Below, piece after piece: positions 1,513-17,694 of a DNA stretch of 18,978 bases. Location: the IMG/VR virus record IMGVR_UViG_2657245081_000003. The stretch is one strand, 5' to 3'. The DNA is from a virus. Its lineage: Duplodnaviria; Heunggongvirae; Uroviricota; Caudoviricetes. Every line of letters begins with the position of its first letter. Positions within the stretch are counted from its first letter, which is position 1. The notes beneath the pieces are model-generated. The model was given only the letters and a program-made list of their open reading frames with translations, did not search any database and was not told the DNA's origin. A program made the position numbers and the translations under genes.

Positions 1513-2099
1513 AACCCCACCTCGCAGACAAAGCGGGTGTAAATTGAGGGAATACAACGTATCGCAAAAAAGCAGAAACGTAACAGACTCGGAGTCAGTG
1601 AATAACTCAGGTATTGGGTTATCAGCTAATATCGAGACTCAAAAAATGGAAAAATCCGCTCGACGGCGGGTTTAAGCTGTGTGACGAAGTAACCACTCTT
1701 AACAGCATAACCAATTTTTTACGTACGTAAACCACTAAATGATATTTGCGAGAATGCTACCGAGTATTGAAAACACCACTACAAATACATAAGCAAATCT
1801 CAACAAATAACCAACAAATAATTTCCAGCGTTATTTTTAGCTGGTTTAAATTGAATCTTCAAATTATAGAGCACTTATAAATAACAGCCATTAATATAAA
1901 TTGGCTAATAGATTTATTTTTATTCAGCCAAGAGCCATGAATAGGATTCGATAGAAAAAGTTCAGATAAAAATAGAGATCTACTTCACAAATCAAATGAG
2001 AAACCAAAACTTACATCTTGAAATAATCACATTGATTAGATGAATATTTATCGCGCAGTGACATCATTTTTTAATAATAGTTCAAAAAAAGGGCTCACG

Positions 2100-3182
2100 A
2101 TGAAAAAATTAACAGTGGCAATTTCTGCTGTAGCTGCATCAGTACTGATGGCGATGTCTGCTCAGGCAGCTGAAATTTATAATAAAGACAGTAACAAGCT
2201 GGATCTGTACGGGAAAGTTAATGCTAAGCACTACTTCTCCTCTAATGATGCAGATGATGGTGATACTACTTATGCCCGTCTTGGCTTCAAAGGTGAAACC
2301 CAAATCAACGATCAACTGACTGGTTTCGGTCAGTGGGAATATGAATTCAAAGGCAACCGCGCTGAATCTCAAGGTTCCTCCAAAGATAAAACCCGTCTTG
2401 CCTTCGCTGGCCTGAAATTCGGTGACTACGGCTCCATCGATTATGGCCGTAACTACGGTGTAGCATACGATATTGGTGCATGGACCGACGTTCTGCCAGA
2501 ATTCGGTGGCGATACCTGGACCCAAACAGATGTATTCATGACTGGTCGCACCACAGGTGTTGCAACTTATCGTAACAATGACTTCTTTGGTCTGGTTGAT
2601 GGTCTGAACTTTGCTGCTCAGTATCAGGGTAAAAATGACCGCACTGACGTAACTGAAGCTAATGGTGATGGTTTCGGTTTCTCCACTACTTATGAGTATG
2701 AAGGATTCGGTGTAGGTGCAACCTATGCTAAATCTGACCGCACTAATAATCAGGTTATCTACGGTAACAACAGCCTGAATGCATCTGGTCAAAATGCTGA
2801 AGTATGGGCAGCTGGTCTGAAATATGATGCGAACAACATCTATCTGGCTACCACCTATTCTGAAACCCAGAACATGACTGTTTTTGGTAATAACCATATT
2901 GCCAACAAAGCACAAAACTTCGAAGTAGTTGCACAATATCAGTTCGACTTCGGTCTGCGTCCGTCCGTTGCTTACCTGCAATCTAAAGGAAAAGACTTGG
3001 GTGCGTGGGGTGATCAGGACTTGGTTGAATATATTGATGTAGGTGCAACCTATTACTTCAACAAAAATATGTCCACTTTTGTTGATTACAAAATCAACCT
3101 GATTGATAAGAGCGATTTCACGAAAGCATCTGGCGTTGCTACCGATGATATCGTTGCTGTAGGTATGGTTTACCAGTTCTAA
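2100..3182 (+). CDS. nmpC: Outer-membrane general porin, phage-encoded Lc/NmpC type (OmpC/OmpF/PhoE family)
   Basis: Translation [47 protein letters not shown]... ...VGMVYQF has a signal peptide ending AQA, a porin-family body and a C-terminal aromatic residue (F) typical of beta-barrel OMPs. It sits between Q and S on the opposite strand, as nmpC does in DLP12. Start chosen at ATG 2100 (AGGG SD) rather than the track's 2040. Confidence 0.9.
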
Positions 3183-4626: not shown

Positions 4627-4789
4627 GATTCCTCCTTGCTGCCAGTCGCAACCATTTTTTATCAACCAGGCTGGCGGTATATCCGAGCAGTGTTGGTATT
4701 TCGGAAGGCTTCAGCTCCGGTTTACGCTTACGACGATCTGGTACTCTGTAGATGTGTCCGTTCATGACACGAATAAGCGGTGTAGCCAT
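4619..4789 (-). CDS. ninE: NinE-family small protein (56 aa)
   Basis: Hand translation [56 protein letters not shown]. Its start overlaps the ybcN stop (TAATG) and its stop overlaps the ybcO start. Not in the ORF track because it is under 60 aa. Confidence 0.75.
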   Translation of the reverse strand: MATPLIRVMNGHIYRVPDRRKRKPELKPSEIPTLLGYTASLVDKKWLRLAARRNHG

Positions 4790-5244
4790 TACGCCTCCTG
4801 CTTGTCGCGGAGCAGCTGGAACTCGCAGCTCTGCGGAATAGTCAGGTGGCAGCCAATATTCACCGCCCAGGCTTCAACCTTACACAGGAAGACATACATC
4901 TCTCCGGTATCAAGATCGGAGGTATGGCGTAACGACTGGATAGTGGTGATATCACCGGTTACGACATCAACCAGGTCTTTGGTTTCATAACCGAGATATG
5001 TGTGTTTGAGAGCATCTTTTACCCAAGCTGGAGTGGCGAACGTTTTACCCTTGCTGATGAGGTATTCACTGATTTCGCTGTACCACATGTGGCTGAGTGC
5101 ATTCTGGGAAAGACTGCGTCTCTCGCGCCACGGTTTAAGCACCATGCGAAAGCATTTGCCGTCCTCCAGATAAGGCTGGATCTGCCGACCGATAGCGGTG
5201 AAGTTACCGCGATGCAATTTGATACCATCTTGTGGGAGGTTCAC
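4789..5244 (-). CDS. ybcN: NinB/YbcN-family protein (recombination-associated, DNA-binding)
   Basis: Translation [62 protein letters not shown]... matches DLP12 YbcN from memory; the RSLSQN..LW motif is shared with lambda NinB. Confidence 0.8.
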
Positions 5245-5409
5245 GCTTCACCTCCGCAGAGGTCAAACGTTGGATGCAAGATATCGCAGGTGCATTTCTG
5301 CATCTGTGACTGGTTGAAAGGTGTTCTGATTGTCGTTTGCACTTTGAGTCCCCTCAAAGCGCAGAAGTCACCGGAGTTGTTCAGGCTCCGATGACATGAT
5401 TATGGCGAG

Positions 5410-5427
5410 TTGATTATGATGAATCAA
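5410..5427. promoter_or_regulatory. Perfect 18-bp palindrome TTGATT-atgatg-AATCAA about 95 bp upstream of the 472-aa gene; candidate operator/promoter element (TTGATT could double as a -35)
   Basis: Read directly; the 6-bp arms are exact reverse complements. No binding protein is known. Confidence 0.3.
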
Positions 5428-5519
5428 TAGGTTCTTATGTCAAATGAACACTAGATCCAAAGGAGGGTAACAATTATCATAGCCAATGAGATTAATCTCA
5501 TTTTTAATAAGGAAATTTC

Positions 5520-6938
5520 ATGAAATATTTCTCAACTGGTTTTTATGTTTCAAACTCCACATCTCTAGCTGAGATCTTTAATGAATGTTTTTCTTGGGTA
5601 AACGACTCACCACATACAACTTTTATTCCAGCACAATTAGTATGTGATTATAAAAGCGAGGAGTACTTCATAGAGTCTAAAAATGAAAGAATTGATATAA
5701 TAACTTATAAAAACAAAGATACTAGTTTAGGCTGTTTTAGGTATTCGAAAATATCTGAGCCACACAAATGGGTAACAGATATTTCAATTAATAAAAATCT
5801 CAAAACTGATACCATGTGGATTCAGGTGGAATCTAGCGTTGTAAGCCAAGATGCAGCTTATCTAGCCCCGCAACCTAAGAAACCATTAGTTGTTATGAGA
5901 TTGATTGATAAATTTTCTGGTGGTCTTGATGATATTTTCAAGGTGTCAGTCGAACCTCATTCCTTAGATGATACTGATGAACATTTAAATATAGCAGCTA
6001 AAGTTATAAATGGTGAAACTGACAACAGACTACCAATAATATACGTTAGCTCCAAGTATTTTTTTAATGAACATGCTCACAATATCATCCCAGAACGCCT
6101 TGCAAGAAAGGTATGCGGATTAGCACATGTATTAATTGAGCCTAGCAATAGACTATTTTCTATTAAGCTAAAAAATGAGACAAATGCTAAAAATGCCTAT
6201 GCTGGTGCTGTTGGTATCTATTGGCCACGGGGTCAAAATATCAGTTTTTATCGCCGTGGTGAGAAAACCGCAAAAGAATTTGAAGATGAGTTATTTGATG
6301 ATGTTGTAAGAGCTACGACTACAATGGCTCCTGTCTCAGATAGTGGATGGAGTGAGATACAAACCAGAAAAACGAAAGACTCTATTAACTCACTCAAAGA
6401 AAGAGGAGAATACACACGCGAACTGATGGCGCTTTACGAAGCCGATAATGTTGCGAAAGATGACCAAATAGAAGATCTTAAGCATAAGATCTCCTCTTTA
6501 GAGCACAGAGTACGCACTCTTCAATCACAAGCTTCAGCCCAAGGAAGCATTGTGCTTAATGCTGGTGAAGAGACTGATTTTTTTGATGGAGAAATCAAAA
6601 ATATAATTATTGACGCACTAAAAACTGCCATAAAAAATAAAAATGAATTTGGTAGAAGCTACCATATCTTATCATCCCTAATTGCCAATAATGAATACAA
6701 TAAAGAAACCGAGAGTCGCCGCCAATTACTTAAAAGGACTTTAACAGGTTACAGAAGCATGGATAGCGCAACACAAAGAAATTTAAAGGACTTAGGTTTC
6801 AGTGCGTCAAGCGATGGAAAACACTGGAAGTTAACATATAATGAAGACCCTCGATATTCCTATATTTTACCTAAAACAGGAAGTGACCACAGAGGTTCTT
6901 TAAATGCTATCTCGGATATAGCAAACATTATTTTCTAA
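5520..6938 (+). CDS. Hypothetical protein, 472 aa, no recognisable family; AT-rich accessory gene (moron), candidate phage-defence or exclusion function
   Basis: Long uninterrupted ORF with SD AAGGA 7 nt upstream of the ATG and strongly AT-biased codons unlike the neighbours. It is on the strand opposite to the surrounding operon and is followed by a perfect hairpin. A predicted coiled-coil segment is present (ELMALYEADNVAKDDQIEDLKHKISSLEHRVRTLQSQ). No Walker A or other motif recognised by eye. Confidence 0.75.
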   Translation: MKYFSTGFYVSNSTSLAEIFNECFSWVNDSPHTTFIPAQLVCDYKSEEYFIESKNERIDIITYKNKDTSLGCFRYSKISEPHKWVTDISINKNLKTDTMWIQVESSVVSQDAAYLAPQPKKPLVVMRLIDKFSGGLDDIFKVSVEPHSLDDTDEHLNIAAKVINGETDNRLPIIYVSSKYFFNEHAHNIIPERLARKVCGLAHVLIEPSNRLFSIKLKNETNAKNAYAGAVGIYWPRGQNISFYRRGEKTAKEFEDELFDDVVRATTTMAPVSDSGWSEIQTRKTKDSINSLKERGEYTRELMALYEADNVAKDDQIEDLKHKISSLEHRVRTLQSQASAQGSIVLNAGEETDFFDGEIKNIIIDALKTAIKNKNEFGRSYHILSSLIANNEYNKETESRRQLLKRTLTGYRSMDSATQRNLKDLGFSASSDGKHWKLTYNEDPRYSYILPKTGSDHRGSLNAISDIANIIF

Positions 6939-7308: not shown

Positions 7309-7596
7309 CTACTCTCTTCCATATAAAGCCAACACCCGCTTCATCGCGGCACTTTGACGACACTCCTTAAAAATCAGATTCGTGCTCACCTTTCCTTCCC
7401 GTTCTTCTCTGGTAGCGAACCGGTAATACACCGTTCGCCAGACCTTACCATCAACGACCAGGATTCCTGACCGCGCCATTTTAGCCGCAGCCTGATTTAT
7501 GCTGGTTACGGTTGCGCCTGTTACCGCGGCAACGTCCTGCGCACAGAAGTTCTTATGAGTCCCCAGGTAATGAATAATTGCCTCTTTGCCCGTCAT
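7309..7596 (-). CDS. ren: Ren protein (lambda ren-like; Rex exclusion resistance)
   Basis: Translation MTGKEAIIHYLGTHKNFCAQDVAAVTGATVTSINQAAAKMARSGILVVDGKVWRTVYYRFATREEREGK... matches lambda Ren from memory. Overlaps the P stop as in lambda. Confidence 0.85.
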   Translation of the reverse strand: MTGKEAIIHYLGTHKNFCAQDVAAVTGATVTSINQAAAKMARSGILVVDGKVWRTVYYRFATREEREGKVSTNLIFKECRQSAAMKRVLALYGRE

Positions 7597-8294
7597 ACAC
7601 TTGCTCCTTTCAGCCCAAACTTCGCTTTGATTTCTGCGATCTTCGCCAGAGCCTGAACACGATTAAGCGGTCTCCCGCCCATGACAGGAAGTTGTTTTAC
7701 TGGTTCAGGTATCGCCTCACCACGGTTAATTCGCGCTGTCATACAGGCCAGTTCATCGGCAGCCTTGCGCCGTAATTCCGCATCAGTCAGCGCATTGGCC
7801 CGCATGTTCTGATACAGGTTGGTAACCAGCCAGTAGTGCGCGTTTGATTTCCACGGATAAGACTCTGCATCTGGATACAGGCCACGTTTCCGGCAATACT
7901 CGTAAACCATATCAACCAGCTCGCTGGCGTTTGGCAGCCCGGCGGTAACGGATGCTTCTTCCCGGCACCAGGCAACAAACTGCCCGGGTGATGGCAGGAA
8001 TGGTCGATTCTGCCGACGGGCTACGCGCATTCCTGCGTTAACCTGTTCCATCGTGGTGATCCCGTTTTCCCGGAAAGCCAGAACCCACTGGCGGCGGATT
8101 TCGTTCAGTTCGTTCTGGTCCCGGTTAGCCAGGCTCGCCGGGAAAGTTGCCAGTAACTGGCTGAACACACCATTGATGATCTGCGCTACCTGTTGTACCT
8201 GCGGCTTTTCGTCGTACTGTTCCGGCATGTTGTTGGCGATCCGGCGCATCTGCTCACGGTCAAAGTTAACCATCTGTGCGGCGATGTTTTTCAT
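7593..8294 (-). CDS. P: Replication protein P (DnaB helicase loader)
   Basis: Translation MKNIAAQMVNFDREQMRRIANNMPEQYDEKPQVQQVAQIINGVFSQLLATFPASLANRDQNELNEIRRQWVLAFRENGITTMEQVNAGMRVARRQNRPF... ...AKFGLKGASV is near-identical to lambda P from memory (233 aa). Confidence 0.95.
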   Translation of the reverse strand: MKNIAAQMVNFDREQMRRIANNMPEQYDEKPQVQQVAQIINGVFSQLLATFPASLANRDQNELNEIRRQWVLAFRENGITTMEQVNAGMRVARRQNRPFLPSPGQFVAWCREEASVTAGLPNASELVDMVYEYCRKRGLYPDAESYPWKSNAHYWLVTNLYQNMRANALTDAELRRKAADELACMTARINRGEAIPEPVKQLPVMGGRPLNRVQALAKIAEIKAKFGLKGASV

Positions 8295-9220
8295 AAATCC
8301 ACCCCGTAAATCCAGTCAGTGTTTGTCAGGTCGAGTTTTGATTTTCCGGCTATCACGCCAGCCTGTTGCTTGTTACGGTTGATTTCGAGTTGGGTCCACT
8401 TGTCGCGGAGTTTGGCCGGACTTAGCACGTTACCGGACCAGAAGTTGTCCTGGCATGCCCAGCGGAACAGCACGCACATGTCGCGGTGGTTACGGCCGTC
8501 ACGTTCACGCATCAGGCGGATATCGTTAGCCCACCCTGCAAAATTCGGTTTTCTGGCTGATGGCGCGATGGTCTTCACCATGTCAAACATCCACTCTGCG
8601 GCGGTCAGGTCTTCTGCTGTCCCCCACCTGCTGCCGCTCTGAATTGCAGCATCTGGTTTCTCCACAGGAAGATCGTTTTCTGGTTGGTCAGAGGATTCGC
8701 CAGAATTCTCGGACGAAAAAGGTTTTATATTGTCTTTTGTTAGTTTGTATTTTGTGTTTACCTGATTCGGGTAAGTGCCTTTACCTGATTTGGGTAAACT
8801 TTTCTTACCTGATTCAGGTAAATTTACCTCTTTCAGGTAAACTTTATTTTTCTTACCTGATTCGGGTAATGTTGACCATTCACTGACCACATTATTAATG
8901 CCGATATTCCGCCCGCTCTGAATAAAAATCCCACGCTTTACCAGAACACTTTTTGCAGCAGAACACTTGTGCGGCAATATCCCGGTCAACTCGGAAAGTT
9001 GCTCGTTGCTCACCCAATCCAGTTTTTTATTAAAGCCATATGTTTTGCGCATGACAGCCAGGAAGACCAGAAGCTGGTGCTGTGTTAATCCGGCCAGCAT
9101 CACAGCTTCCAGCAACTCATTTGCAATGCGCGTATAACCATCATCGAGATCTGCCACGCGCGGCTCCTTTTGTGCCGCATCCGGCACTGGAAAATTGAAT
9201 ATCTCAGCAGTGTTTGCCAT
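8291..9220 (-). CDS. O: Replication initiator O (origin-binding protein); the gene contains the origin iterons
   Basis: Start chosen at MANTAEIFNFPVPD... (ATG 9220, SD GGGAGG upstream) rather than the longer track ORF. The C-terminal half ...AAEWMFDMVKTIAPSARKPNFAGWANDIRLMRERDGRNHRDMCVLFRWACQDNFWSGNVLSPAKLRDKWTQLEINRNKQQ... is lambda-O-like from memory. The repeated LPESGKK peptide is encoded by the iterons. Confidence 0.9.
   Translation of the reverse strand: MANTAEIFNFPVPDAAQKEPRVADLDDGYTRIANELLEAVMLAGLTQHQLLVFLAVMRKTYGFNKKLDWVSNEQLSELTGILPHKCSAAKSVLVKRGIFIQSGRNIGINNVVSEWSTLPESGKKNKVYLKEVNLPESGKKSLPKSGKGTYPNQVNTKYKLTKDNIKPFSSENSGESSDQPENDLPVEKPDAAIQSGSRWGTAEDLTAAEWMFDMVKTIAPSARKPNFAGWANDIRLMRERDGRNHRDMCVLFRWACQDNFWSGNVLSPAKLRDKWTQLEINRNKQQAGVIAGKSKLDLTNTDWIYGVDL
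8748..8859. repeat. Origin of replication iterons: five ~17-bp dyad-symmetric repeats (consensus TTACCTGATTCGGGTAA) inside the O gene, flanked by an AT-rich tract (8700-8747)
   Basis: Copies start at 8748, 8771, 8795, 8814 and 8843 (TTACCTGATTCGGGTAA, TTACCTGATTTGGGTAA, TTACCTGATTCAGGTAA, TTACCTCTTTCAGGTAA, TTACCTGATTCGGGTAA). Relative to O transcription the AT-rich region is downstream of the iterons, as in ori-lambda. Confidence 0.8.
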
Positions 9221-9306
9221 AATTCCTCCCGCAATGAGTGTGTTACGATTTGCACCTGAAAGTCGGTTCTGTTCCCGCAGACCGACTTTCGCCATTTCTG
9301 AACCTG

Positions 9307-9846
9307 TCATATTGCCCCCAGCATGGTGGTCACCATCGCCATTAATGGACCAGCCAGATCCGGGTCCACACGAAACATCGACACAATACCTTCACTCATT
9401 TCCTTCAGTTTCTGGTGGCGTGGTGCGTTGAGAATGACAGCCTGTTTTGCCTCACTGAGTTCCTTTTCCATTTCAGCCAACCGAGTCATGAAGCTATCCT
9501 GCTCAACCAGGTAACCGCGATATTCCAGCGGTAGTACCGCCAGAATTGCCGGGGTCAGTTCACGCACGTTATTTCGGTATTTTTCAGAATCGAATTTGTT
9601 ATCGAGGAAGCGGAACAGCTTCTGGCGTGCACGGCTGACATCATCAGGGAAATCGATGGTGCCGTCGCCCTGCTCCCGATACTCATTCACAATGAGTGCG
9701 GCAACGACATCCTGATTATCTACAGCCGACCAGGCGCGGACGGCATCACGGATTTTTTCGTGGCCTGGAGCTTGTTTTGTTTGAGAACGATTTATCACCG
9801 CAGTCGGAATAAATCCGCTAGTCTGTTGGTATGTAAGTGGTTGCAT
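9307..9846 (-). CDS. Regulator at the cII position (179 aa); possibly a YdaT-like functional analogue of CII
   Basis: Strong SD AAGGAG 7 nt upstream of the ATG. Located between cro and O where lambda has cII, but about twice cII's size and not lambda-CII-like in sequence. The YdaT assignment is inferred from the YdaS-like cro upstream and is not verified. Confidence 0.55.
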   Translation of the reverse strand: MQPLTYQQTSGFIPTAVINRSQTKQAPGHEKIRDAVRAWSAVDNQDVVAALIVNEYREQGDGTIDFPDDVSRARQKLFRFLDNKFDSEKYRNNVRELTPAILAVLPLEYRGYLVEQDSFMTRLAEMEKELSEAKQAVILNAPRHQKLKEMSEGIVSMFRVDPDLAGPLMAMVTTMLGAI

Positions 9847-9915
9847 AATTGACTCCTTTAGTTTGAATTGACTGTTAAGTTGATTGCTTATTGTTAAAGA
9901 GCGTGAAATGGAAAT

Positions 9916-10146
9916 TTAAGCTGCGTTCTTTTCGGTGTGTGGAAACAACTTCGGAAGATCCGGGCGAATCTGGTATGCCTTCACAACTCCACCAGTAGCC
10001 GTAACAATGCTGCCGACATGTTCAGGGGATACCTTTGCTTTGTTGTGAAGCCACTTATAGACGGCCTGCTGTGAAACTTCGCAGGCATCGCCTAGTTTCT
10101 TTTGTGAACCAACGATATTGATCGCTGTTTTGATTGCTGGGTTCAT
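9916..10146 (-). CDS. cro: Cro-like repressor (YdaS/DUF1019-type HTH)
   Basis: Translation MNPAIKTAINIVGSQKKLGDACEVSQQAVYKWLHNKAKVSPEHVGSIVTATGGVVKAYQIRPDLPKLF... has the HTH core GSQKKLGDACEVSQQAVYKW. Divergent from cI across the operator region; SD GGAGG. Confidence 0.8.
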   Translation of the reverse strand: MNPAIKTAINIVGSQKKLGDACEVSQQAVYKWLHNKAKVSPEHVGSIVTATGGVVKAYQIRPDLPKLFPHTEKNAA

Positions 10147-10250
10147 AACAACCTCCGTGGTTAATCCGAATAAAGATTAAAACTATGGTTGTTTTTAGTC
10201 AACAACCATTTTCGTTTGATGAAATAAAACCTTGGTTGTACATTTGATCT
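10147..10250. promoter_or_regulatory. Immunity control region (OR): divergent pR/pRM candidates and operator palindromes
   Basis: Palindrome ATGGTTGTT-N7-AACAACCAT at 10185-10209, with further GGTTGT/ACAACC half-sites at 10147-10160 and 10233-10240. Candidate pR on the - strand: -35 TTGACT (10197-10202), 17-bp spacer, -10 TAATCT (10174-10179). Candidate pRM on the + strand: -35 TTGATG (10216-10221), -10 TACATT (10239-10244), which would give a leaderless cI mRNA starting at the ATG, as for lambda pRM. Confidence 0.55.
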
Positions 10251-10940
10251 ATGAAAACAACACTCTCAGAAAGACTTAAAGAAGCCAGATTAGCGCGAGG
10301 CCTTACACAAAAGGCGCTTGGGGATTTGGTCGGGGTTAGCCAGGCTGCTATTCAGAAAATCGAAACAGGGAAAGCTAACCAAACAACTAAAATCGTGGAG
10401 ATCGCGAACGCTTTGGGTGTGCGCGCAGAATGGTTATCTTCTGGCGTTGGAAATATGTCAGACAGTACAGTGCAACCAATACAATCAACTGTCAGCCATT
10501 CCAAATACTTCAAAATTGACGTTCTTGATATAGAAGTCAGTGCCGGGCCAGGTGTAATCAACCGTGAGTTTGTAGAAGTTCTACGCTCGGTTGAGTACTC
10601 GTTTGACGATGCTCGTCACATGTTCGATGGCAGGAAGGCGGAAAATATCCGCATCATTAACGTGCGAGGTGACAGCATGTCAGGGACGATCGAACCAGGT
10701 GACCTGCTGTTCGTTGATATCACTGTTAAATCTTTCGACGGTGATGGCATCTATGCGTTTCTGTACGACGACACTGCCCATGTAAAACGTCTTCAAATGA
10801 TGAAGGATAAGCTGCTGGTTATCTCTGATAACAAGAGCTACTCGCCGTGGGACCCGATCGAGAAAGACGAGATGAACCGGGTGTTCATATTCGGTAAGGT
10901 CATTGGAAGCATGCCGCAGACGTACAGGAAGCATGGTTAA
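10251..10940 (+). CDS. cI: CI prophage repressor (N-terminal HTH, C-terminal LexA-like S24 autopeptidase domain)
   Basis: Translation MKTTLSERLKEARLARGLTQKALGDLVGVSQAAIQKIETGKANQ... has an HTH, then a linker, then the S24 motifs RGDSMSGTIEPGDLLFVD and HVKRL (Ser/Lys dyad). Confidence 0.9.
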   Translation: MKTTLSERLKEARLARGLTQKALGDLVGVSQAAIQKIETGKANQTTKIVEIANALGVRAEWLSSGVGNMSDSTVQPIQSTVSHSKYFKIDVLDIEVSAGPGVINREFVEVLRSVEYSFDDARHMFDGRKAENIRIINVRGDSMSGTIEPGDLLFVDITVKSFDGDGIYAFLYDDTAHVKRLQMMKDKLLVISDNKSYSPWDPIEKDEMNRVFIFGKVIGSMPQTYRKHG

Positions 10941-11148
10941 TTTATCTACGACTTAAGGGAGCGAAGGTTAAGGTTTATACCACTCGGATTAGATATTGCA
11001 CTAAATTCTCTATAAGAACGCCAAATCTGTTTGCATATTTCAGTAAATATTCTCGTTGTTAGCTGAGATTTGTTGCTACTGTCAGCAAAATGTCCCCCTA
11101 TCTCGTAGCGGTTTTTATTTCGAATCATTATGTTAAGATGTTTCTGAT

Positions 11149-11154
11149 TATAAT
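11149..11154 (+). promoter_or_regulatory. Perfect -10 hexamer TATAAT 16 bp upstream of the lipoprotein ATG (candidate independent promoter; -35 weak)
   Basis: Read directly. No good -35 at 17 bp, so activity is uncertain; the gene could instead be co-transcribed with cI. Confidence 0.3.
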
Positions 11155-11169
11155 GAATGGAAACATAAA

Positions 11170-11550
11170 ATGAGAAAAATCCTAATCGCTGCCATGATGG
11201 CATCTGTATTGGCTGGGTGTGCTTCTTCAGGCAACCAGCAACTCAAAAATGAAACTGAAATTAGTGTCCAGTCTAAACTTCAGGAAGGTAAAACAACCAA
11301 GAATGAGGTTAAATCTTACTTTGGTTCTCCTGATGCTGTTTCATATACTGACAGTGGAAACGAGATCTGGAAGTACGCCTTTGCAAAAGTAAAAGTTAAT
11401 GGCACCACTTTTATTCCATTCTATGGATTATTCCATAATGGAACGAACGGTACGAAAAAAGAACTTACTATTCTTTTTAACGATGACACGATTAAGAAAT
11501 ACACAATGTCAGAAACCCAAATAAACTCGAAATCAGGTTGGGCTGACTGA
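11170..11550 (+). CDS. Lipoprotein (126 aa), AT-rich moron at the rexAB position downstream of cI; possible BamE/SmpA-OmlA-like fold; candidate superinfection-exclusion factor
   Basis: Translation MRKILIAAMMASVLAGCASSGNQQ... has a signal peptide with lipobox LAGC; the mature part is hydrophilic. Followed directly by a rho-independent terminator. Confidence 0.75.
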   Translation: MRKILIAAMMASVLAGCASSGNQQLKNETEISVQSKLQEGKTTKNEVKSYFGSPDAVSYTDSGNEIWKYAFAKVKVNGTTFIPFYGLFHNGTNGTKKELTILFNDDTIKKYTMSETQINSKSGWAD

Positions 11551-11557
11551 TAATCAT

Positions 11558-11584
11558 ACCCGGCAACCGCGCCGGGTTTTCTTT
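11558..11584 (+). terminator. Rho-independent terminator (CCCGGC-aaccgc-GCCGGG + TTTTCTTTTCC)
   Basis: Read directly, 8 nt after the lipoprotein stop. Confidence 0.75.
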
Positions 11585-11710
11585 TCCTCCCCCTCATAAC
11601 TCATACCGTCCAAAAAACCACCACACCTCACTTCAGTTATCGCTATGCGATGCAAGTCACAAAATAAATCCATCCTAAATACAACCAGTTATATTTAAAA
11701 CAACCGACAA

Positions 11711-11753
11711 AACAACTTTTGTTGTTGACGATAAAACAACTATAGTTTTAAAT
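11711..11753 (+). promoter_or_regulatory. Candidate pL/OL: palindrome AACAAC-tttt-GTTGTT overlapping -35 TTGACG (11724-11729), 17-bp spacer, -10 TTAAAT (11748-11753)
   Basis: Read directly; it shares the AACAAC/GTTGTT half-site with the OR region, as expected for CI operators. Confidence 0.45.
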
Positions 11754-11860
11754 TAAATTCATCGCAACGACACAACGATACGGTAACCACCTGTTTCACC
11801 GTTGCGATGACCGCTTAGATCCGCAGTTTGAATTTCAGCAGGCTTCGGGGAGTGCGAGGG

Positions 11861-12238
11861 GTGAAACGGACGCGTGAACGTCGGTGTGACCAGCTGAAAT
11901 CAACACAACACTTTATACCTCAGTCGCTTCAACGAGGCGGCTTAGTTATGACAACCGGCGGCCATCCACCGCCTGAATACGCGCAGAAGTCTCTATATGT
12001 TCAGCAGCCCAGCTTACGGGCAGGAGTTTTTATGGTTCATCAACATTACGGAACGCAGACCGTTAATCGCGGTGCGGTCATGCCAGGAATGCTGGTCAAA
12101 CACAAAGATGGTACCTGGACTGCATCAGCTAATTTACGCGGACGGCTTTATCTGCATCGCGGCATCGAGCGCACTTATACCCGTGATTTGCTCGTAGAAG
12201 TTTTTCTCGACGGACGCGGTAACGGCCTGAATCACTAA
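11861..12238 (+). CDS. N-position early protein, putative N-like antiterminator (GTG start; alternative ATG start at 11948 gives 96 aa)
   Basis: First gene downstream of candidate pL. From GTG 11861 (SD GGGGAG 9 nt upstream) the N-terminus is [13 protein letters not shown], an arginine-rich stretch resembling the N-protein ARM (lambda TRRRERR). The rest is not recognisably N-like. Confidence 0.4.
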
Positions 12239-12313
12239 TCCCCTTTCCTGTTTTCCTAATCAGCCTGGCATTTCGCGGGCGATATTTTCACAGCCATTTT
12301 CAGGAGTTCAGCC

Positions 12314-12610
12314 ATGAACGCTTATTACATTCAGGATCGTCTTGAGGCTCAGAGCTGGGCGCGTCACTACCAGCAGATCGCCCGTGAAGAGAAAGAGGCA
12401 GAACTGGCAGACGACATGGAAAAAGGCCTGCCCCAGCACCTGTTTGAATCGCTATGCATCGATCATTTGCAACGCCACGGGGTCAGCAAAAAAGCCATTA
12501 CCCGTGCGTTTGATGACGATGTTGAGTTTCAGGAGCGCATGGCAGAACACATCCGGTACATGGTTGAAACCATTGCTCACCACCAGGTTGATATTGATTC
12601 AGAGGTATAA
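12314..12610 (+). CDS. gam: Gam (RecBCD inhibitor), short GamS-length form
   Basis: Translation [56 protein letters not shown]... ...[10 protein letters not shown] matches lambda Gam from memory. The upstream in-frame region is closed by a TAA at 12257-12259. Confidence 0.9.
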
Positions 12611-12615
12611 AACGG

Positions 12616-13401
12616 ATGAGTACAGCACTCGCAACGCTGGCTGGGAAGCTGGCTGAACGAGTCGGCATGGATTCTGTCGACCCACAGGAACTGATCACCA
12701 CTCTTCGCCAGACGGCATTTAAAGGTGATGCCAGCGATGCGCAGTTCATCGCATTGCTGATCGTCGCCAACCAGTACGGTCTTAATCCGTGGACGAAAGA
12801 AATTTACGCCTTCCCTGATAAGCAGAACGGCATCGTTCCGGTGGTGGGCGTTGATGGCTGGTCCCGCATCATCAACGAAAACCAGCAGTTTGACGGCATG
12901 GACTTTGAACAGGACAACGAATCCTGCACATGCCGGATTTACCGCAAAGACCGCAATCATCCGATCTGCGTTACCGAGTGGATGGATGAATGCCGCCGCG
13001 AACCATTCAAAACCCGCGAAGGCAGAGAAATCACGGGGCCGTGGCAGTCGCATCCCAAACGGATGTTACGGCATAAAGCCATGATTCAGTGTGCCCGTCT
13101 GGCCTTCGGATTTGCTGGTATCTATGACAAGGATGAAGCCGAGCGCATTGTCGAAAATACTGCATACACTGCAGAACGTCAGCCGGAACGCGACATCACT
13201 CCGGTTAACGATGAAACCATGCAGGAGATTAACACTCTGCTGATCGCCCTGGATAAAACATGGGATGACGACTTATTGCCGCTCTGTTCCCAGATATTTC
13301 GCCGCGACATTCGCGCATCGTCAGAACTGACACAGGCCGAAGCAGTGAAAGCTCTTGGATTCCTTAAACAGAAAGCCACTGAGCAGAAGGTGGCAGCATG
13401 A
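12616..13401 (+). CDS. bet: Bet (Red-beta single-strand annealing protein)
   Basis: The 261-aa translation [82 protein letters not shown]... is essentially identical to lambda Bet from memory. Confidence 0.95.
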
Positions 13402-14078
13402 CACCGGACATTATCCTGCAGCGTACCGGGATCGACGTGAGAGTTGTCGAACAGGGGGATGATGCATGGCACAAATTACGGCTCGGCGTCATCACCGCTT
13501 CAGAAGTTCACAACGTGATAGCAAAGCCCCGCTCAGGAAAGAAGTGGCCTGACATGAAAATGTCCTACTTCCACACCCTGCTGGCTGAGGTTTGCACCGG
13601 TGTGGCTCCGGAAGTTAATGCTAAGGCGCTGGCCTGGGGAAAACAGTACGAGAACGACGCCAGAACCCTGTTTGAATTCACTTCCGGCGTGAATATTACT
13701 GAATCCCCGATCATCTATCGCGACGAAAATATGCGCACCGCCTGCTCTCCCGATGGTTTATGCAGTGACGGCAACGGCCTTGAACTGAAATGCCCGTTTA
13801 CCTCCCGGGATTTCATGAAATTCCGGCTCGGTGGTTTCGAGGCAATAAAATCGGCTTACATGGCCCAGGTGCAGTACAGCATGTGGGTGACGCGAAAAGA
13901 TGCCTGGTACTTTGCCAACTATGACCCGCGCATGAAGCGTGAAGGCCTGCATTACGTCGTGGTTGAGCGGAATGAAAAGTACATGGCGAGTTTTGACGAG
14001 ATGGTGCCGGAGTTCATCGAAAAAATGGACGAGGCACTGGCTGAAATTGGTTTTGTATATGGGGAGCAATGGCAATGA
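13398..14078 (+). CDS. exo: Exo (Red-alpha 5'-3' exonuclease)
   Basis: The 226-aa translation [65 protein letters not shown]... matches lambda Exo; overlaps the bet stop as in lambda. Confidence 0.95.
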
Positions 14079-14257
14079 AGCATCCTCACGATAATATCCG
14101 GGTAGGCGCGATCACTTTCGTCTACTCCGTTACAAAGCGAGGCTGGGTATTTCCCGGCCTTTCTGTTATCCGAAATCCGCTGAAAGCCCAGCGGCTGGCT
14201 GAGGAGATAAATAATAAACGGGGAGCTGTATGCACAAAGCATCTCCCGTTGAATTAA
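14075..14257 (+). CDS. Lambda orf60a-like small protein
   Basis: Translation [60 protein letters not shown]. The ATG overlaps the exo TGA (ATGA), as orf60a does with exo in lambda. Confidence 0.6.
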
Positions 14258-14421
14258 GAACGAGTATCGAGATGGCACATAGCCTCGCTCAAATTGGAGT
14301 CAGGTTTGTGCCAATACCAGTAGAAACAGACGAAGAATTTCATACGTTAGCCGCATCCCTTTCACAAAAGCTGGAAATGATGGTGGCGAAAGCAGAAGCA
14401 GATGAGAGAGACCAGGTATGA
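14230..14421 (+). CDS. Lambda orf63-like small protein
   Basis: Translation [63 protein letters not shown]; position and size match lambda orf63. Confidence 0.6.
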   Translation: MHKASPVELRTSIEMAHSLAQIGVRFVPIPVETDEEFHTLAASLSQKLEMMVAKAEADERDQV

Positions 14422-14497
14422 CAACCACTGAATGCATTTTTCTGGCAGCGGGCTTCATATTCTGTGTGCTTATGCTTGCCGACATGGGGCTTGTTCA

Positions 14498-14713
14498 ATG
14501 ACACCTCAGCAAGAAAACGCCCTTCGCAGCATTGCCCGTCAGGCTAATTCTGAAATCAAAAAAGCCAGACAGCAGTTTCCGGATAAAAACGTCGATGACA
14601 TTTGCCGTAGCGTACTAAAGAAGCACCGCGAAACGGTAACGCTGATGGGATTCACACCGACTCATTTAAGCCTGGCGATCGGCATGTTGAACGGCGTCTT
14701 TAAGGAACGGTGA
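14498..14713 (+). CDS. Lambda orf61-like small protein
   Basis: Translation MTPQQENALRSIARQANSEIKKARQQFPDKNVDDICRSVLKKHRETVTLMGFTPTHLSLAIGMLNGVFKER. Start taken at the internal ATG; the longer track ORF begins at 14432. Confidence 0.55.
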   Translation: MTPQQENALRSIARQANSEIKKARQQFPDKNVDDICRSVLKKHRETVTLMGFTPTHLSLAIGMLNGVFKER

Positions 14714-14811
14714 ACATGAAAAGCAAAATCATCAGGGAGCTACAGGCTCCTTTTTTATTATTCGCATTCACCCTCAAGCGTATTAACCAACAATTCAGGG
14801 ATTAATGAAAG

Positions 14812-15033
14812 ATGGCAGACATAATTGATTCAGCATCAGAAATTGAAGAATTACAGCGCAACACAGCAATAAAAATGCGCCGCCTGAACCACCAGGCTAT
14901 ATCTGCCACTCATTGTTGTGAGTGTGGCGATCCGATAGATGAACGAAGACGACTGGCCGTTCAGGGTTGTCGGACTTGTGCCAGTTGCCAGCAAGATCTG
15001 GAGCTTATCAGTAAACAGAGAGGTTCGAAGTGA
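14812..15033 (+). CDS. TraR/DksA-family C4 zinc-finger protein (lambda orf73-like)
   Basis: 73 aa with a C-x2-C-x17-C-x2-C motif (CCECGDPIDERRRLAVQGCRTCASC), characteristic of the TraR/DksA RNA-polymerase-binding family. Confidence 0.8.
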   Translation: MADIIDSASEIEELQRNTAIKMRRLNHQAISATHCCECGDPIDERRRLAVQGCRTCASCQQDLELISKQRGSK

Positions 15034-15185
15034 GCGAAATTAACTAGAAGCCAAAGATAAAATCATCGCTGAGCAGGAGAAAATCGCTAACGGAGAAAAG
15101 ACAGTAAGTCAGTATATGAAAACCGCATGATATCATCAGATAAAAATCGGTCGTAAAGCGAAATATTAATACCAGAACAAACGAG

Positions 15186-15846: not shown

Positions 15847-16051
15847 TACTTACTGCACAATAATACACAAAATTGCGTAAATTTTTTGCATGGATTTTAG
15901 CTCTTTCAGCCGACATTTAAGGGGTAAATAGCATTTCCTAAAAGCAACTGCACCAACCCAACAGAATGGGCTACCGCTTACGTTGAGAGCAAAAAAGTGT
16001 ATAGCAGCAATGAACAGCATCCTCGCACTGACGAGGATTTCTTTTATCTGA

Positions 16052-16073
16052 ACTCGCTACGGCGAGTTTTTTT
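16052..16073 (+). terminator. Rho-independent terminator-like hairpin (ACTCGC-tacg-GCGAGT + TTTTTTT)
   Basis: Read directly, in the non-coding remnant region between the membrane-protein gene and xis. Confidence 0.45.
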
Positions 16074-16245
16074 ATGGAGATGATAAATGCACTTCCGAGT
16101 CACAGGTGAATAGAATGGAGAACCATTCAACAGAGTTATCGAAGCCGAGAACATCAGCGACTGCTATGACCACTGGATGCTGTGGGCGCAGATAGCACAT
16201 GCAGACGTAACCAATATTCGAATTGAAGAACTGAAAGAACACCAA

Positions 16246-16267
16246 GCCGCCTGATGGCGGTTTTTTC
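16246..16267 (+). terminator. Rho-independent terminator-like hairpin (GCCGCC-tgat-GGCGGT + TTTTTTC) immediately upstream of xis
   Basis: Read directly; 6-bp stem including one G-U pair, followed by a T-tract. Confidence 0.5.
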
Positions 16268-16293
16268 TTGCGTGTAATTGCGGAGACTTTGCG

Positions 16294-16512
16294 ATGTACT
16301 TGACACTTCAGGAGTGGAACGCTCGCCAGCGACGCCCAAGAAGCCTTGAAACAGTTCGTCGATGGGTGCGCGAATGCAGGATATTCCCTCCTCCGGTTAA
16401 GGATGGAAGAGAATATCTGTTCCACGAATCAGCGGTAAAGGTTGACTTAAATCGACCAGTAACAGGTAGCCTTTTGAAGAGGATCAGAAATGGGAAGAAG
16501 GCGAAGTCATGA
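16294..16512 (+). CDS. xis: Excisionase Xis (lambda-type)
   Basis: Translation MYLTLQEWNARQRRPRSLETVRRWVRECRIFPPPVKDGREYLFHESAVKVDLNRPVTGSLLKRIRNGKKAKS is near-identical to lambda Xis from memory; overlaps the int start by 23 nt as in lambda. Confidence 0.95.
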   Translation: MYLTLQEWNARQRRPRSLETVRRWVRECRIFPPPVKDGREYLFHESAVKVDLNRPVTGSLLKRIRNGKKAKS

Positions 16513-17560
16513 GCGCCGGGATTTACCCCCTAACCTTTATATAAGAAACAATGGATATTACTGCTACAGGGACCCAAGGACGGGTAAAGAGTTTGGATTA
16601 GGCCGAGACAGGCGAATCGCAATCACTGAAGCTATACAGGCCAACATTGAGTTATTTTCAGGACACAAACACAAGCCTCTGACAGCGAGAATCAACAGTG
16701 ATAATTCCGTTACGTTACATTCATGGCTTGATCGCTACGAAAAAATCCTGGCCAGCAGAGGAATCAAGCAGAAGACACTCATAAATTACATGAGCAAAAT
16801 TAAAGCAATAAGGAGGGGTCTGCCTGATGCTCCACTTGAAGACATCACCACAAAAGAAATTGCGGCAATGCTCAATGGATACATAGACGAGGGCAAGGCG
16901 GCGTCAGCCAAGTTAATCAGATCAACACTGAGCGATGCATTCCGAGAGGCAATAGCTGAAGGCCATATAACAACAAACCCTGTCGCTGCCACTCGCGCAG
17001 CAAAATCAGAGGTAAGGAGATCAAGACTTACGGCTGACGAATACCTGAAAATTTATCAAGCAGCAGAATCATCACCATGTTGGCTCAGACTTGCAATGGA
17101 ACTGGCTGTTGTTACCGGGCAACGAGTTGGTGATTTATGCGAAATGAAGTGGTCTGATATCGTAGATGGATATCTTTATGTCGAGCAAAGCAAAACAGGC
17201 GTAAAAATTGCCATCCCAACAACATTGCATGTTGATGCTCTCGGGATATCAATGAAGGAAACACTTGATAAATGCAAAGAGATTCTTGGCGGAGAAACCA
17301 TAATTGCATCTACTCGTCGCGAACCGCTTTCATCCGGCACAGTATCAAGGTATTTTATGCGCGCACGAAAAGCATCAGGTCTTTCCTTCGAAGGGGATCC
17401 GCCTACCTTTCACGAGTTGCGCAGTTTGTCTGCAAGACTCTATGAGAAGCAGATAAGCGATAAGTTTGCTCAACATCTTCTCGGGCATAAGTCGGACACC
17501 ATGGCATCACAGTATCGTGATGACAGAGGCAGGGAGTGGGACAAAATTGAAATCAAATAA
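16490..17560 (+). CDS. int: Integrase Int (lambda-type tyrosine recombinase), intact
   Basis: The 356-aa translation MGRRRSHERRDLPPNLYIRNNGYYCYRDPRTGKEFGLGRDRRIAITEAIQANIELFSGHKHKPL... ...HLLGHKSDTMASQYRDDRGREWDKIEIK is essentially lambda Int. Confidence 0.97.
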   Translation: MGRRRSHERRDLPPNLYIRNNGYYCYRDPRTGKEFGLGRDRRIAITEAIQANIELFSGHKHKPLTARINSDNSVTLHSWLDRYEKILASRGIKQKTLINYMSKIKAIRRGLPDAPLEDITTKEIAAMLNGYIDEGKAASAKLIRSTLSDAFREAIAEGHITTNPVAATRAAKSEVRRSRLTADEYLKIYQAAESSPCWLRLAMELAVVTGQRVGDLCEMKWSDIVDGYLYVEQSKTGVKIAIPTTLHVDALGISMKETLDKCKEILGGETIIASTRREPLSSGTVSRYFMRARKASGLSFEGDPPTFHELRSLSARLYEKQISDKFAQHLLGHKSDTMASQYRDDRGREWDKIEIK

Positions 17561-17660
17561 TGATTTTATTTTGACTGATAGTGACCTGTTCGTTGCAACA
17601 AATTGATAAGCAATGCTTTTTTATAATGCCAACTTAGTATAAAAAAGCAGGCTTCAACGG
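17561..17660. other. attL: attL (B-O-P'): lambda P' arm and 15-bp core in reverse orientation, then host B arm
   Basis: Core TTAGTATAAAAAAGC at 17634-17648 is the reverse complement of the lambda core GCTTTTTTATACTAA. The preceding ~70 bp reverse-complement to the lambda P' arm (...GTTGGCATTATAAAAAAGCATTGCTTATCAATTTGTTGCAACGAACAGGTCACTATCAGTCAAAATAAAATCA) as recalled from memory. Confidence 0.85.
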
Positions 17661-17694
17661 ATTCATTTTTCTATTTCATAGCCCGGAGCAACCT

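Follow-up and report, generated by a model that had tools for sequence, protein, structure and literature searches.

What kind of lysis/lysogeny switch does a lambda-like prophage carry when its immunity region is not that of lambda? The question is raised by the window analysed here (the whole stretch of 18,978 nucleotides of IMG/VR record IMGVR_UViG_2657245081_000003, a member of the Caudoviricetes), which is a lambda-backbone prophage at attLambda. BLAST against the lambda genome (J02459) aligns three parts of it: 7318-8757 at 93% identity, covering ren, P and the C-terminal half of O; 12232-15045 at 97%, covering gam, bet and exo; and 16019-17648 at 98%, covering xis and int and stopping at the attP core. 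Seven of the genes had been called essentially lambda in the initial annotation, and their products bear this out (int 99.2%, xis 98.6%, exo 96.0%, bet 99.6%, gam 96.9%, P 97.9% and ren 88% identity). Its second claim, that the immunity region differs from lambda, holds as well: in the same search CI, Cro and a 179-aa protein at the cII position lack a significant lambda match (E > 0.3). The open reading frames are where that annotation had placed them, but the non-lambda module is larger than its 9307-10250, a 3.5-kb block at 8758-12231 in which the 179-aa protein is encoded together with an S24, 434-like CI and a Cro of the YdaS family. The lambda pI site for CII, TTGCGTGTAATTGC, is kept at 16268-81 although CII is not of the lambda type. 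Scans of the window with Rfam and for tRNA genes returned no matches. We propose, with a probability of roughly 85%, that this region serves a functional lambdoid prophage as its immunity module, block-swapped into a lambda backbone and built around a phi80-type CII switch.

Sequence comparison places the 179-aa protein (9307..9846, minus strand, with a stop that overlaps the O-like gene's start) in the YdaT family, as a CII of the phi80 type. A homology search against YdaT and CII, the check that the initial annotation had proposed, matched Pfam YdaT (PF06254; E = 4.3e-30, 104.5 bits with the cut-off at 21) and not Pfam CII; the best tblastn hit in the lambda early region (E 0.33) lies elsewhere than cII, so the view that this is not lambda CII was correct. 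The protein also matches PHROG 163, "CII-like transcriptional activator", over its full length (E = 1.4e-66), and its closest named relative is phi80 CII, with 66% identity across all 179 residues. At greater distance come sequence matches to 8bt1 and 3c4r, structures of YdaT (about 27% identity, E = 5e-4), and in the recognition helix, alpha3, the protein's QKLFRFLD aligns with QKIFRWLD of 8bt1. The arginine is conserved: R79 hardly varies among 35 homologues, and its counterparts are Arg60 in CP-933P YdaT and Arg57 in Rac YdaT. An AF2 model of moderate quality (pLDDT 70, pTM 0.44) places helices at 29-40, 45-58, 70-82, 88-104 and 119-138, plus more, and the best six PDB matches found for it by Foldseek are all YdaT chains of 8bt1 or 3c4r (probability 1.0, TM normalized to the target 0.63-0.66). 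The predicted fold is thus a POU-like all-alpha HTH domain with a long C-terminal helix. Compared with the YdaTs that have been studied, the protein has an extra 26-residue N-terminus (residues 1-26 are predicted to be disordered) and two extra C-terminal helices. In the literature reached, we found neither binding or expression data nor a DNA target for a phi80-type CII.

The genes around it have the order of a lambdoid switch. The cro analogue (9916..10146, minus strand), first gene of the pR operon, encodes 76 aa with a YdaS-family HTH; it matches Pfam YdaS (PF15943; E = 6.6e-17, 61.5 bits with the cut-off at 30), more weakly P22_Cro, and also PHROG 35 and the PDB Cro 3bd1 (E = 0.006). It had been labelled YdaS/DUF1019-type, of which only the first half is right, DUF1019 being an old name of PF06254, that is, of YdaT (PMC8630535). 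Among 54 diverse Enterobacteriaceae loci, every YdaT-type gene has a small same-strand ORF upstream, and 38 of 55 such ORFs (the window's Cro counted) belong to the YdaS family; of the divergent upstream ORFs scored (n=48), 46 contain HTH_3 and 33 contain S24; and an ORF of at least 120 aa follows downstream in 48 of the 54 loci, where the window has its O-like gene. The window's 179-aa gene likewise stands directly after the cro-like gene, before the replication genes and opposite the repressor gene. That YdaS and YdaT are Cro and CII analogues, offered earlier as a suggestion, is confirmed in print (Jobling 2018, PMC5917428; Jurenas 2021, PMC8630535; Prolic-Kalinsek 2023, PMC9986795; Wons 2025, PMC11879457).

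The repressor gene (10251..10940, plus strand) encodes a CI of 229 aa in which a 434-repressor-like N-terminal domain is joined to an S24 autopeptidase C-terminal domain (HTH_3, 5e-13; Peptidase_S24, 1.2e-18; E = 4.5e-9 to 434 repressor and 1e-4 to UmuD'). An Ala98-Gly99 cleavage site, Ser142 within GDSM and Lys179 are all present. The identification as an S24-peptidase CI is sound, and with this site and Ser/Lys dyad the protein has the features of a LexA/CI-type autocleaving repressor, for which cleavage is predicted.

Where might the YdaT-family CII act? Experiments on the YdaTs of CP-933P and Rac have established the box, the tetramer and the activation of a promoter that runs in reverse, towards the repressor gene (PMC8630535, PMC9986795, PMC11879457). 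The sole perfect YdaT-box of the window, TTGATT-ATGATG-AATCAA (5410-5427, minus strand), is found away from the switch, in the nin region, where it overlaps both the -35 and the spacer of a conserved promoter (-35 TTGATT, 5427..5422; -10 CATAAT, 5404..5399; minus strand) that lies upstream of a ybcN/NinB-like gene (4789-5244) and reads towards ybcN-ninE-rusA-Q. The phage 82 record annotates the identical -35 and -10. Among the phages read, the box is present in all nine that combine a phi80-type CII with that nin block; with the spacer left free it occurs in phage 82, HK639, CobraSix, 4A7, PhiR26_1, KO-TP1, HK225 and phi80, the phi80 form being TTGATA-N6-TATCAA. It was not found in the Rac-type phage Rac-SA53, where the only box present is the one already known at the ydaT start. 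A search of the literature for YdaT together with ninB, or for the PhiR phages, returned nothing relevant. The leader RNA that follows the nin-region promoter, upstream of ybcN-ninE-rusA-Q, is structured and covarying.

A second candidate lies in the cII gene itself, where codons 17-22 contain a YdaT-box-like element, TTGAGAACGATTTATCAC (9781..9798, plus strand), which could be a pRE-like site for CII. Third-position conservation is higher there than anywhere else in the gene: a rare ATA codon is kept in 23 of 25 versions, and the third base of codon 21 is T in 100% of them, whatever the amino acid. The window's own copy differs from the canonical box at 4 of 12 positions, which for a single sequence is no better than chance, and the assignment is for that reason tentative. 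No good -10 or -35 of a leftward promoter is evident beside it. Taken together, the two boxes hint that the phi80-type CII controls a small conserved regulon of at least two targets, the element in cII codons 17-22 and the nin promoter, where previously one site alone had been described, a suggestion that we hold at somewhat below even odds.

Further sites were sought around the start of cII. The cro-cII spacer (9847..9915, minus strand) has an rrn-type boxA-like motif, CGCTCTTTAACAA, at 9891-9903 in the nutR position, and a perfect YdaT half-site, TTGATT (9880-9885, plus strand), inside TTGATTGCTTATTGTTAA; its RNA appears unstructured, the fold being not significant. A Rac-style YdaT-box at the cII start codon is absent, and homology with phage 4A7 breaks exactly at the ATG. 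Direct TTGAYT repeats in the spacer, considered as a lambda-CII-like site, are missing from the 4A7-type spacer, which serves the same CII allele, and are therefore unsupported.

The position of the perfect box allows another role for the 179-aa protein, namely that it mainly represses the rightward nin promoter, from the box at 5410-5427, and so delays Q and the late genes, instead of or besides activating cI. In its favour are the box itself, the window's only perfect one, which overlaps both -35 and spacer of a conserved promoter directed at ybcN-ninE-rusA-Q, and the want of convincing pRE hexamers beside the intragenic element; Rac YdaT, moreover, binds over PydaST too (PMC11879457). For both characterised YdaTs, however, the promoter that is activated runs in reverse, towards the repressor gene, and the conserved element within cII points to a pRE-type site. 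Binding over a -35 is also what lambda CII does, yet it activates. We consider a mainly repressing role unlikely, and the two roles are in any case compatible.

On the main reading, an immunity module with a phi80-type CII, CI and Cro would share operators at pR and pL. The half-site GGTTGT/ACAACC had been described as common to OR and OL, and its clustering at both supports that description. Over the whole window GGTTGT is not enriched (12 copies against 9.2 expected), whereas four copies fall in the 104-bp cI-cro gap that forms the OR region (10147..10250; Poisson 7e-7), and two, with three more GTTGT, in the OL region at 11681-11749 (1e-5). The promoter/operator segments of pR and pL, moreover, match at 82% over 28 nt. 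The pL promoter (-35 TTGACG, 11725-30; -10 TAAATT, 11749-54; plus strand) was found by a promoter scan; for pR (-35 TTGACT, 10202..10197; -10 TAATCT, 10179..10174; minus strand) and pRM (-35 TTGATG, 10216-21; -10 TACATT, 10239-44; plus strand) we infer positions that agree with the consensus at 8 of 12 bases, neither of which the scanner picked. This placement of pRM predicts a leaderless cI mRNA that starts at the ATG at 10251.

A single operator had earlier been seen in the palindrome at 10185-10209, the 25 bp of which would be occupied by one dimer of CI (or Cro). The palindrome exists (ATGGTTGT-N9-ACAACCAT, with perfect 8-bp arms) and is kept in an Enterobacter relative (L090) with CI and Cro about 80% identical, in which the OR motifs as a whole are almost wholly conserved, as they also are across loci. 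As one operator, however, it is improbable. The repressor of phage 434 binds 14-bp ACAA-N6-TTGT sites, and the DNA-binding domain of CI is 434-like; at OL, moreover, the facing half-sites (11721-25 and 11736-40) are 10 bp apart and not 9. The operators are better read as 434-like 14-bp sites of the form A[A/C]AAC-N4-GTTGT with the same layout at pR and pL, the palindrome then consisting of the strong halves, turned towards each other, of two neighbouring sites. This would give OR three sites at spacings of 23 and 24 bp (OR1 10179-10192, OR2 10202-15, OR3 10226-39) and, in the OL/pL region (11681..11754, plus strand), OL1 at 11736-49, OL2 at 11712-25 and a third site at 11681-94 or 11700-13. 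Operator-promoter geometry is then identical at pR and pL, and OL2, ACAACTTTTGTTGT, is a perfect ACAA-N6-TTGT.

A switch assembled from these parts would work as follows. CI, a 434-like HTH protein with an S24 autopeptidase stimulated by RecA, would bind three OR and two or three OL 14-bp operators, repress pR and pL, and probably autoregulate its own leaderless transcript from pRM, while the YdaS-family Cro, made first from pR, would compete for the same operators. After infection the 179-aa CII would be made from pR and, probably as a tetramer, bind inverted repeats resembling TTGATT-N6-AATCAA, activating an establishment promoter whose leftward transcript would extend across cro and into cI. 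Since the YdaT tetramer has two DNA-binding faces, bridging of the cII and nin boxes is conceivable.

Other genes flank the switch. A lipoprotein moron (11170..11550, plus strand; signal peptide and Cys, PHROG 3135, weak Pfam match to BamE) lies between cI and OL/pL, where lambda has rex, with an intrinsic terminator behind it at 11558-11577. The O-like replication initiator (8291..9310, minus strand; Phage_rep_O) has a non-lambda N-terminal and a lambda-like C-terminal half, with 65% protein identity to lambda O, DNA homology only up to 8757, and its own iterons (TACCTGATTCGGGTAA repeats, about 8760-8870). No N gene was found in the window. The Arg-rich N-terminus of ORF 11828-12238 was considered as an N-like protein and rejected: only the C-terminal 77 residues match, to Kil (PHROG 294), Pfam gives no match, and the upstream part is treated as a probable over-extension of the ORF. 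As N is missing, an HK022-type put RNA was also sought, but there is no sequence similarity to HK022 and the stem-loop at 11760-11809 after pL is not significant (z = -1.6).

Could the module be the decaying remnant of a cryptic prophage, devoid of current regulatory function? Many E. coli prophages are defective, and DLP12, a close relative of this backbone, no longer has an immunity region. We regard decay as very improbable, given that the ORFs are all intact, that the catalytic residues of CI are present, and that the module recurs at 99.9% identity in PhiR26_1 (a deposited phage genome, recorded host K-12, annotated cI/cro/cII), is 95-99% conserved in about 2000 genomes and has a match in 2228 of the 5426 complete E. 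coli genomes. Least credible of all is that YdaS and YdaT form a toxin-antitoxin pair and not lysogeny regulators, since over-expressed lambda CII is toxic as well, both YdaS and YdaT are HTH DNA-binding proteins, and their genes take exactly the places of cro and cII in a viable phage, within a long pR operon. The Pfam names "YdaS_toxin" and "YdaT_toxin", the PGAP name "toxin YdaT domain-containing protein" and the toxicity of ectopically expressed Rac ydaS/ydaT (PMC5700377) speak for such a pair, but CP-933P YdaT showed no toxicity and the hypothesis has been tested and rejected (PMC8630535, PMC5917428).

With the YdaS/YdaT analogy published, PhiR26_1 annotated and matches in so many genomes, the module is already known: the lysis/lysogeny switch of this lambda-like E. 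coli prophage is an ordinary one that has been catalogued before, and most of what we describe is textbook lambdoid mosaicism without new biology. It does correct misleading "toxin" annotations in about 2000 E. coli genomes. The new lead is that such phages carry a likely CII target at each of two conserved positions, a side result that offers specialists in phage regulation two concrete candidate sites for a phi80-type CII. If the two-box regulon is real, it would tie the lysogeny decision directly to Q and the late genes as a functional stand-in for lambda paQ, and the conserved boxes may suggest how lambdoid phages that are N-less or have a non-lambda CII achieve this coupling.

Among known systems, the phi80 immunity region (cI, cro/gene 30 and cII; JX871397, X13065) has the orthologous CII (66%), the same gene order (CI <- -> Cro -> CII -> O-like) and the same nin-region block and box. 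The two CI proteins, by contrast, are only 24% identical, likeness between the Cro proteins is not detectable, and the phi80 operators are 19 bp long and of different sequence; an N gene, nut sites and, in the interval from cII to gene 15, an oop-like M3 RNA are further features of phi80, whereas in the window cII overlaps O. The YdaS/YdaT pairs of CP-933P and Rac (8bt1, 3c4r) belong to the same Pfam families and occupy the same cro and cII positions, and YdaT shares with the window's protein the predicted fold and the conserved recognition-helix Arg, its canonical box being present in the window; the differences are in length (179 against 141 aa, at about 27% identity), in the repressor, an SOS-cleavable S24 CI unlike PaaR2 or RacR, and in the Rac box at the ydaT start codon. 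With 434 the window shares the best likeness of the CI N-terminal domain (E = 4.5e-9) and operators that fit ACAA-N6-TTGT, although most sites have one imperfect half and the recognition helices read SQAAIQK in the window's CI and TQQSIEQ in 434; hetero-immunity with 434 is expected. The lambda switch has the same overall logic and gene order: divergent pR and pRM enclose three operators at intervals of about 23-24 bp, the cI mRNA is probably leaderless, and a moron separates cI from pL. The likeness may extend to a candidate CII site within the 5' end of cII, where the box in codons 17-22 would parallel the lambda CII site inside cII. The window has no homologue of N, cIII or oop, and lambda CII is unrelated to the window's CII in sequence and fold, its site being a direct repeat where the window's likely site is an inverted one.

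With a probability of roughly 0.85, the immunity region is a switch of the CI/Cro/CII type whose CII belongs to the YdaT family. CI (10251-10940, (+) strand) contains the Pfam domains HTH_3 and Peptidase_S24, in agreement with the S24-peptidase repressor recognized in the initial annotation; it has Ala98-Gly99, Ser142 and Lys179, and its nearest solved structures are the N-terminal domain of the phage 434 repressor (E = 4.5e-9) and UmuD'. Cro (9916-10146, (-) strand) is a YdaS family member (PF15943, E = 6.6e-17); of its earlier label, "YdaS/DUF1019-type", the first half holds, and the second is a former name of the YdaT family. The 179-aa product at the cII position (9307-9846, (-) strand), which had been judged not to be lambda CII and proposed for comparison with YdaT and CII, matches YdaT (PF06254, E = 4.3e-30) and, over its full length, PHROG 163, "CII-like transcriptional activator" (E = 1.4e-66), and shows no similarity to lambda CII in a search against J02459. 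It is 66% identical to the phi80 cII product across all 179 residues, and 52-66% identical to CII of mEp237, HK639 and HK225. YdaT crystal structures match its sequence weakly (8bt1, E = 5.5e-4; 3c4r, E = 1e-3); the best six PDB matches of its AlphaFold model (35 homologues as input, pLDDT 70, residues 1-26 disordered) are YdaT chains only (probability 1.0, TM 0.63-0.66).

The module lies among the early genes of a lambdoid prophage, the window as a whole being reversed relative to the lambda map. BLAST against lambda (J02459) found three segments: 7318-8757 (lambda 40558-39119, 93% DNA identity; ren, P and the C-terminal half of O), 12232-15045 (lambda 33193-30380, 97%; gam, bet and exo) and 16019-17648 (lambda 29355-27724, 98%; xis and int). 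Protein identities of 99.2% for int, 98.6% for xis, 99.6% for bet, 96.9% for gam, 96.0% for exo, 97.9% for P and 88% for ren bear out the initial description of these genes as essentially lambda. The segment limits therefore define a non-lambda block at 8758-12231, so that the immunity region indeed differs from that of lambda; the block contains the N-terminal half of O, which has iterons of its own, together with the 179-aa gene, cro, the operators, cI, a lipoprotein gene and its terminator, OL/pL, and a kil variant. By ORF reading, cro and cII are followed on the (-) strand by the O-like gene (8291-9310), P (7593-8294) and ren (7309-7596), and cI on the (+) strand by the lipoprotein gene, kil, gam, bet, exo, xis and int; ORF reading and family searches found no N gene in the window. 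Lambda homology in the int segment ends with the attP core (17648), and a pectinesterase-family host gene lies within the remaining stretch (17648-18978), consistent with a prophage integrated at attLambda.

Several other features accompany this backbone. The lipoprotein gene (126 aa, 11170-11550, (+) strand; weak BamE/SmpA-like match, PHROG 3135), probably a moron expressed in the lysogen, has its own strong terminator (to 11577) and sits between cI and OL/pL, where lambda carries rexAB. Just past pL (region 11756-11870) is a hairpin with a 10-bp stem (11760-11809, (+) strand), statistically not unusual, and the long Kil ORF (11828-12238, (+) strand) has an Arg-rich N-terminal extension (KRTRERR), its family match being limited to the last 77 residues. 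In the nin region, a 472-aa gene (5520-6938, (+) strand) runs antisense to the pR operon, with no Pfam match and a weak PADLOC HEC-07 match (1e-9) as its sole family match; at the equivalent relative position (offset by ~25-100 bp) phage PhiR26_1 has a gene annotated as defence protein PD-lambda-1. Downstream of the Q region is an OmpD/NmpC-like porin gene (2040-3182, (+) strand), an arrangement shared with DLP12. Finally, TTGCGTGTAATTGC (16268-16281, (+) strand), 13 bp upstream of xis and presumably at the location of lambda pI, matches the lambda CII consensus TTGC-N6-TTGC; since this phage has no lambda-type CII, it would be an orphan site left over from mosaic exchange.

The module is widespread. 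A 1.8-kb stretch is 99.9% identical in PhiR26_1 (recorded host K-12 MG1655), where its genes are annotated cI/cII/Cro, and 2228 of 5426 complete E. coli genomes have a match, in which the middle gene bears the PGAP name "toxin YdaT domain-containing protein". Some 700 homologues are found across the Enterobacteriaceae. In a sample of 54 diverse genome loci, a small same-strand ORF lies immediately upstream in all 54 (38/55 YdaS family and three lambda-Cro family, the window's Cro counted), and an ORF of at least 120 aa lies downstream in 48, where the window carries its O-like gene; among 48 divergent upstream ORFs scored, the window's included, 46 have HTH_3 and 33 S24. YdaS and YdaT have been described as Cro and CII analogues and no toxin-antitoxin pair (PMC5917428, PMC8630535), and CP-933P YdaT as homologous to phi80 CII (PMC8630535); this bears out the resemblance to the YdaS/YdaT arrangement, with YdaT as a CII analogue, that the initial annotation had pointed to. 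The immunity module is thus already known, its observation confirmed and its interpretation supported.

At OR and OL, where every promoter and operator assignment is one that we infer, a half-site common to both regions had been proposed, and clustering agrees: GGTTGT occurs four times within the 104 bp that separate cI from cro (Poisson 7e-7) and GTTGT five times in the OL region (1e-5), with no GGTTGT enrichment across the whole window. A 28-nt pR segment (10168-10195) is 82% complementary to a pL segment (11733-11760), and pR and pL would therefore be of one common design. Reading the operators as 14-mers with a GTTGT end gives putative OR1 (AAAACTATGGTTGT, 10179-92), OR2 (ACGAAAATGGTTGT, 10202-15), OR3 (AAAACCTTGGTTGT, 10226-39), OL1 (AAAACTATAGTTGT, 11736-49) and OL2 (ACAACTTTTGTTGT, 11712-25), 23-24 bp apart centre to centre; at pR and pL alike the first proposed site lies in the spacer, touching the -10, and the second touches the -35. 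The 25-bp palindrome is better taken as the strong halves of OR1 and OR2 that point towards each other: these halves are 9 bp apart at OR and their counterparts 10 bp apart at OL, which favours two adjacent sites over one rigid site. A predicted pRM (TTGATG-17-TACATT, 10216-10244) would put its transcript start on the ATG of cI, which lacks a Shine-Dalgarno sequence. In an Enterobacter relative (CI N-domain 83% and Cro 79% identical), the entire OR is better conserved than the flanking genes, with GGTTGT intact at 4/4.

In the 80 closest viral contigs, one and the same cII allele stands behind two types of cro, operator and cI N-terminus, that of the window and that of phage 4A7, which are about equally frequent. 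Homology between the two types breaks off precisely at the start codon of cII, so that any cis site required by this CII has to be located either in the part common to both or in each of the two spacers. In the window's cro-cII spacer, exactly at the nutR position, CGCTCTTTAACAA (9891-9903, (-) strand) differs by one mismatch from the rrn boxA consensus; no boxB hairpin was found in the window. Three variant loci (L029, L075, L086) have an 11-nt insertion creating a GACTG-ATTAA-CAGTC hairpin. Many phi80-type loci (among L087-L142, e.g. L090:2440-2500 in the Enterobacter relative; also L006:3470-3500), whatever cro is upstream, have directly 5' of cII a conserved GC hairpin (GCCGCTTAACGGCGGC) accompanied by CCTAACCACGAAAGGGAAAGCA, which might be nutR, tR1 or something else; the window type lacks it.

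YdaT is a POU-like HTH tetramer that binds TTGATT-N6-AATCAA (PMC9986795). From family membership and the conserved boxes described below, we consider it reasonably probable that this CII binds similar sites. Scanning the published box over -350 to +150 around cII in 59 loci revealed a positional cluster at +45 to +48 (e.g. ATGATAAATCGCAATCAA, TTGATTTTTGAAAATCAG), that is, at cII codons 17-22, within the predicted disordered N-terminus. Codon tables reveal DNA-level constraint: of 25 distinct cII versions, 23 use the rare ATA for Ile18 and none uses ATC; codon 21 ends in T in 100% of sequences, although its residue varies among A, S, N, F, Y and D; and Gln22 is CAA in 18/25. Codons 16-22 form the gene's highest window of third-position conservation (0.81 vs a mean of 0.59), codons 1-6 ranking second. 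The conserved letters, xTGATA-N6-xxTCAA, have YdaT-box geometry; the window's own copy (TTGAGAACGATTTATCAC on the (+) strand, 9781-9798) has four mismatches and is not significant by itself. Synonymous conservation is unusual at codons 1-10 and 16-22 (window 9781-9846; genome loci L087-L147, homologues 39-75% identical), with CTT/TCA at codons 3-4 as a further example, and points to a DNA or RNA element embedded in the 5' end of cII. That the intragenic element serves a pRE-like promoter is a proposal we rate as less likely than not.

The window has one perfect YdaT-box, TTGATTATGATGAATCAA (5410-5427; ~0.001 expected by chance), at the end of a block (5245-5433) that BLAST found in 48 phage records; among the matches listed, 26 records have a match that reaches the box start, and 25 of these encode a phi80-type CII, the remaining one being a partial phage 82 record. 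The box stands at the same place in all nine phages examined that combine this block with a phi80-type CII (L148-L153, L001:3148, L006:6548, the window included), directly past which inter-phage homology ends, and its half-sites are kept and its spacer free: TTGATT-ATGATG-AATCAA in the window, TTGATT-TCCCAA-AATCAA in phage 82, TTGATT-CCAGAA-AATCAA in HK639 and CobraSix, TTGATT-ATTCAT-AATCAA in 4A7, TTGATT-ATTGGA-AATCAA in PhiR26_1, TTGATA-AAGGAA-AATCAA in KO-TP1, and TTGATA-N6-TATCAA in HK225 and phi80. Phage mEp237 lacks the block and has a two-mismatch box 43 bp upstream of ninB and another in cII codons 17-22. No box with one mismatch or fewer occurs in the lambda early region or the whole HK022 genome, and Rac-SA53 has no nin-region box, its sole box being the known one at the ydaT start. 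A conserved nin-region promoter is predicted here on the (-) strand (TTGATT-17-CATAAT, 5399-5427), upstream of a ybcN/NinB-like gene: the distal half-site forms its -35, and the box overlies both this -35 and the spacer; identical hexamers are annotated as a putative promoter in the phage 82 record. Between promoter and gene is a conserved leader of ~160 nt (5245-5398, (-) strand) with three predicted hairpins and no Rfam match, in which 7/30 predicted pairs still pair after change on both sides (e.g. GTCATCGGAG...CTCCGGTGAC vs CTGCCAGCGG...CCCTGGCAG). CII might act on this box to modulate, in either direction, transcription running towards Q, a possibility we rate at somewhat below even. The YdaT literature examined does not mention it; the intragenic and nin-region boxes as CII sites are a lead of the present analysis, outside the original finding, and the conserved boxes are the sole item that deserves a bench test.

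These features have parallels in known systems. In Rac, YdaT recognizes ATGATT-N6-AATCAA at a site over the start codon of its own gene and switches on a reverse promoter directed at racR (PMC11879457). The operators proposed here fit the phage 434 form ACAA-N6-TTGT, in agreement with the 434-like domain of CI, and the predicted start of the pRM transcript at the cI ATG matches the leaderless cI of lambda and the leaderless paaR2 of CP-933P (PMC8630535).
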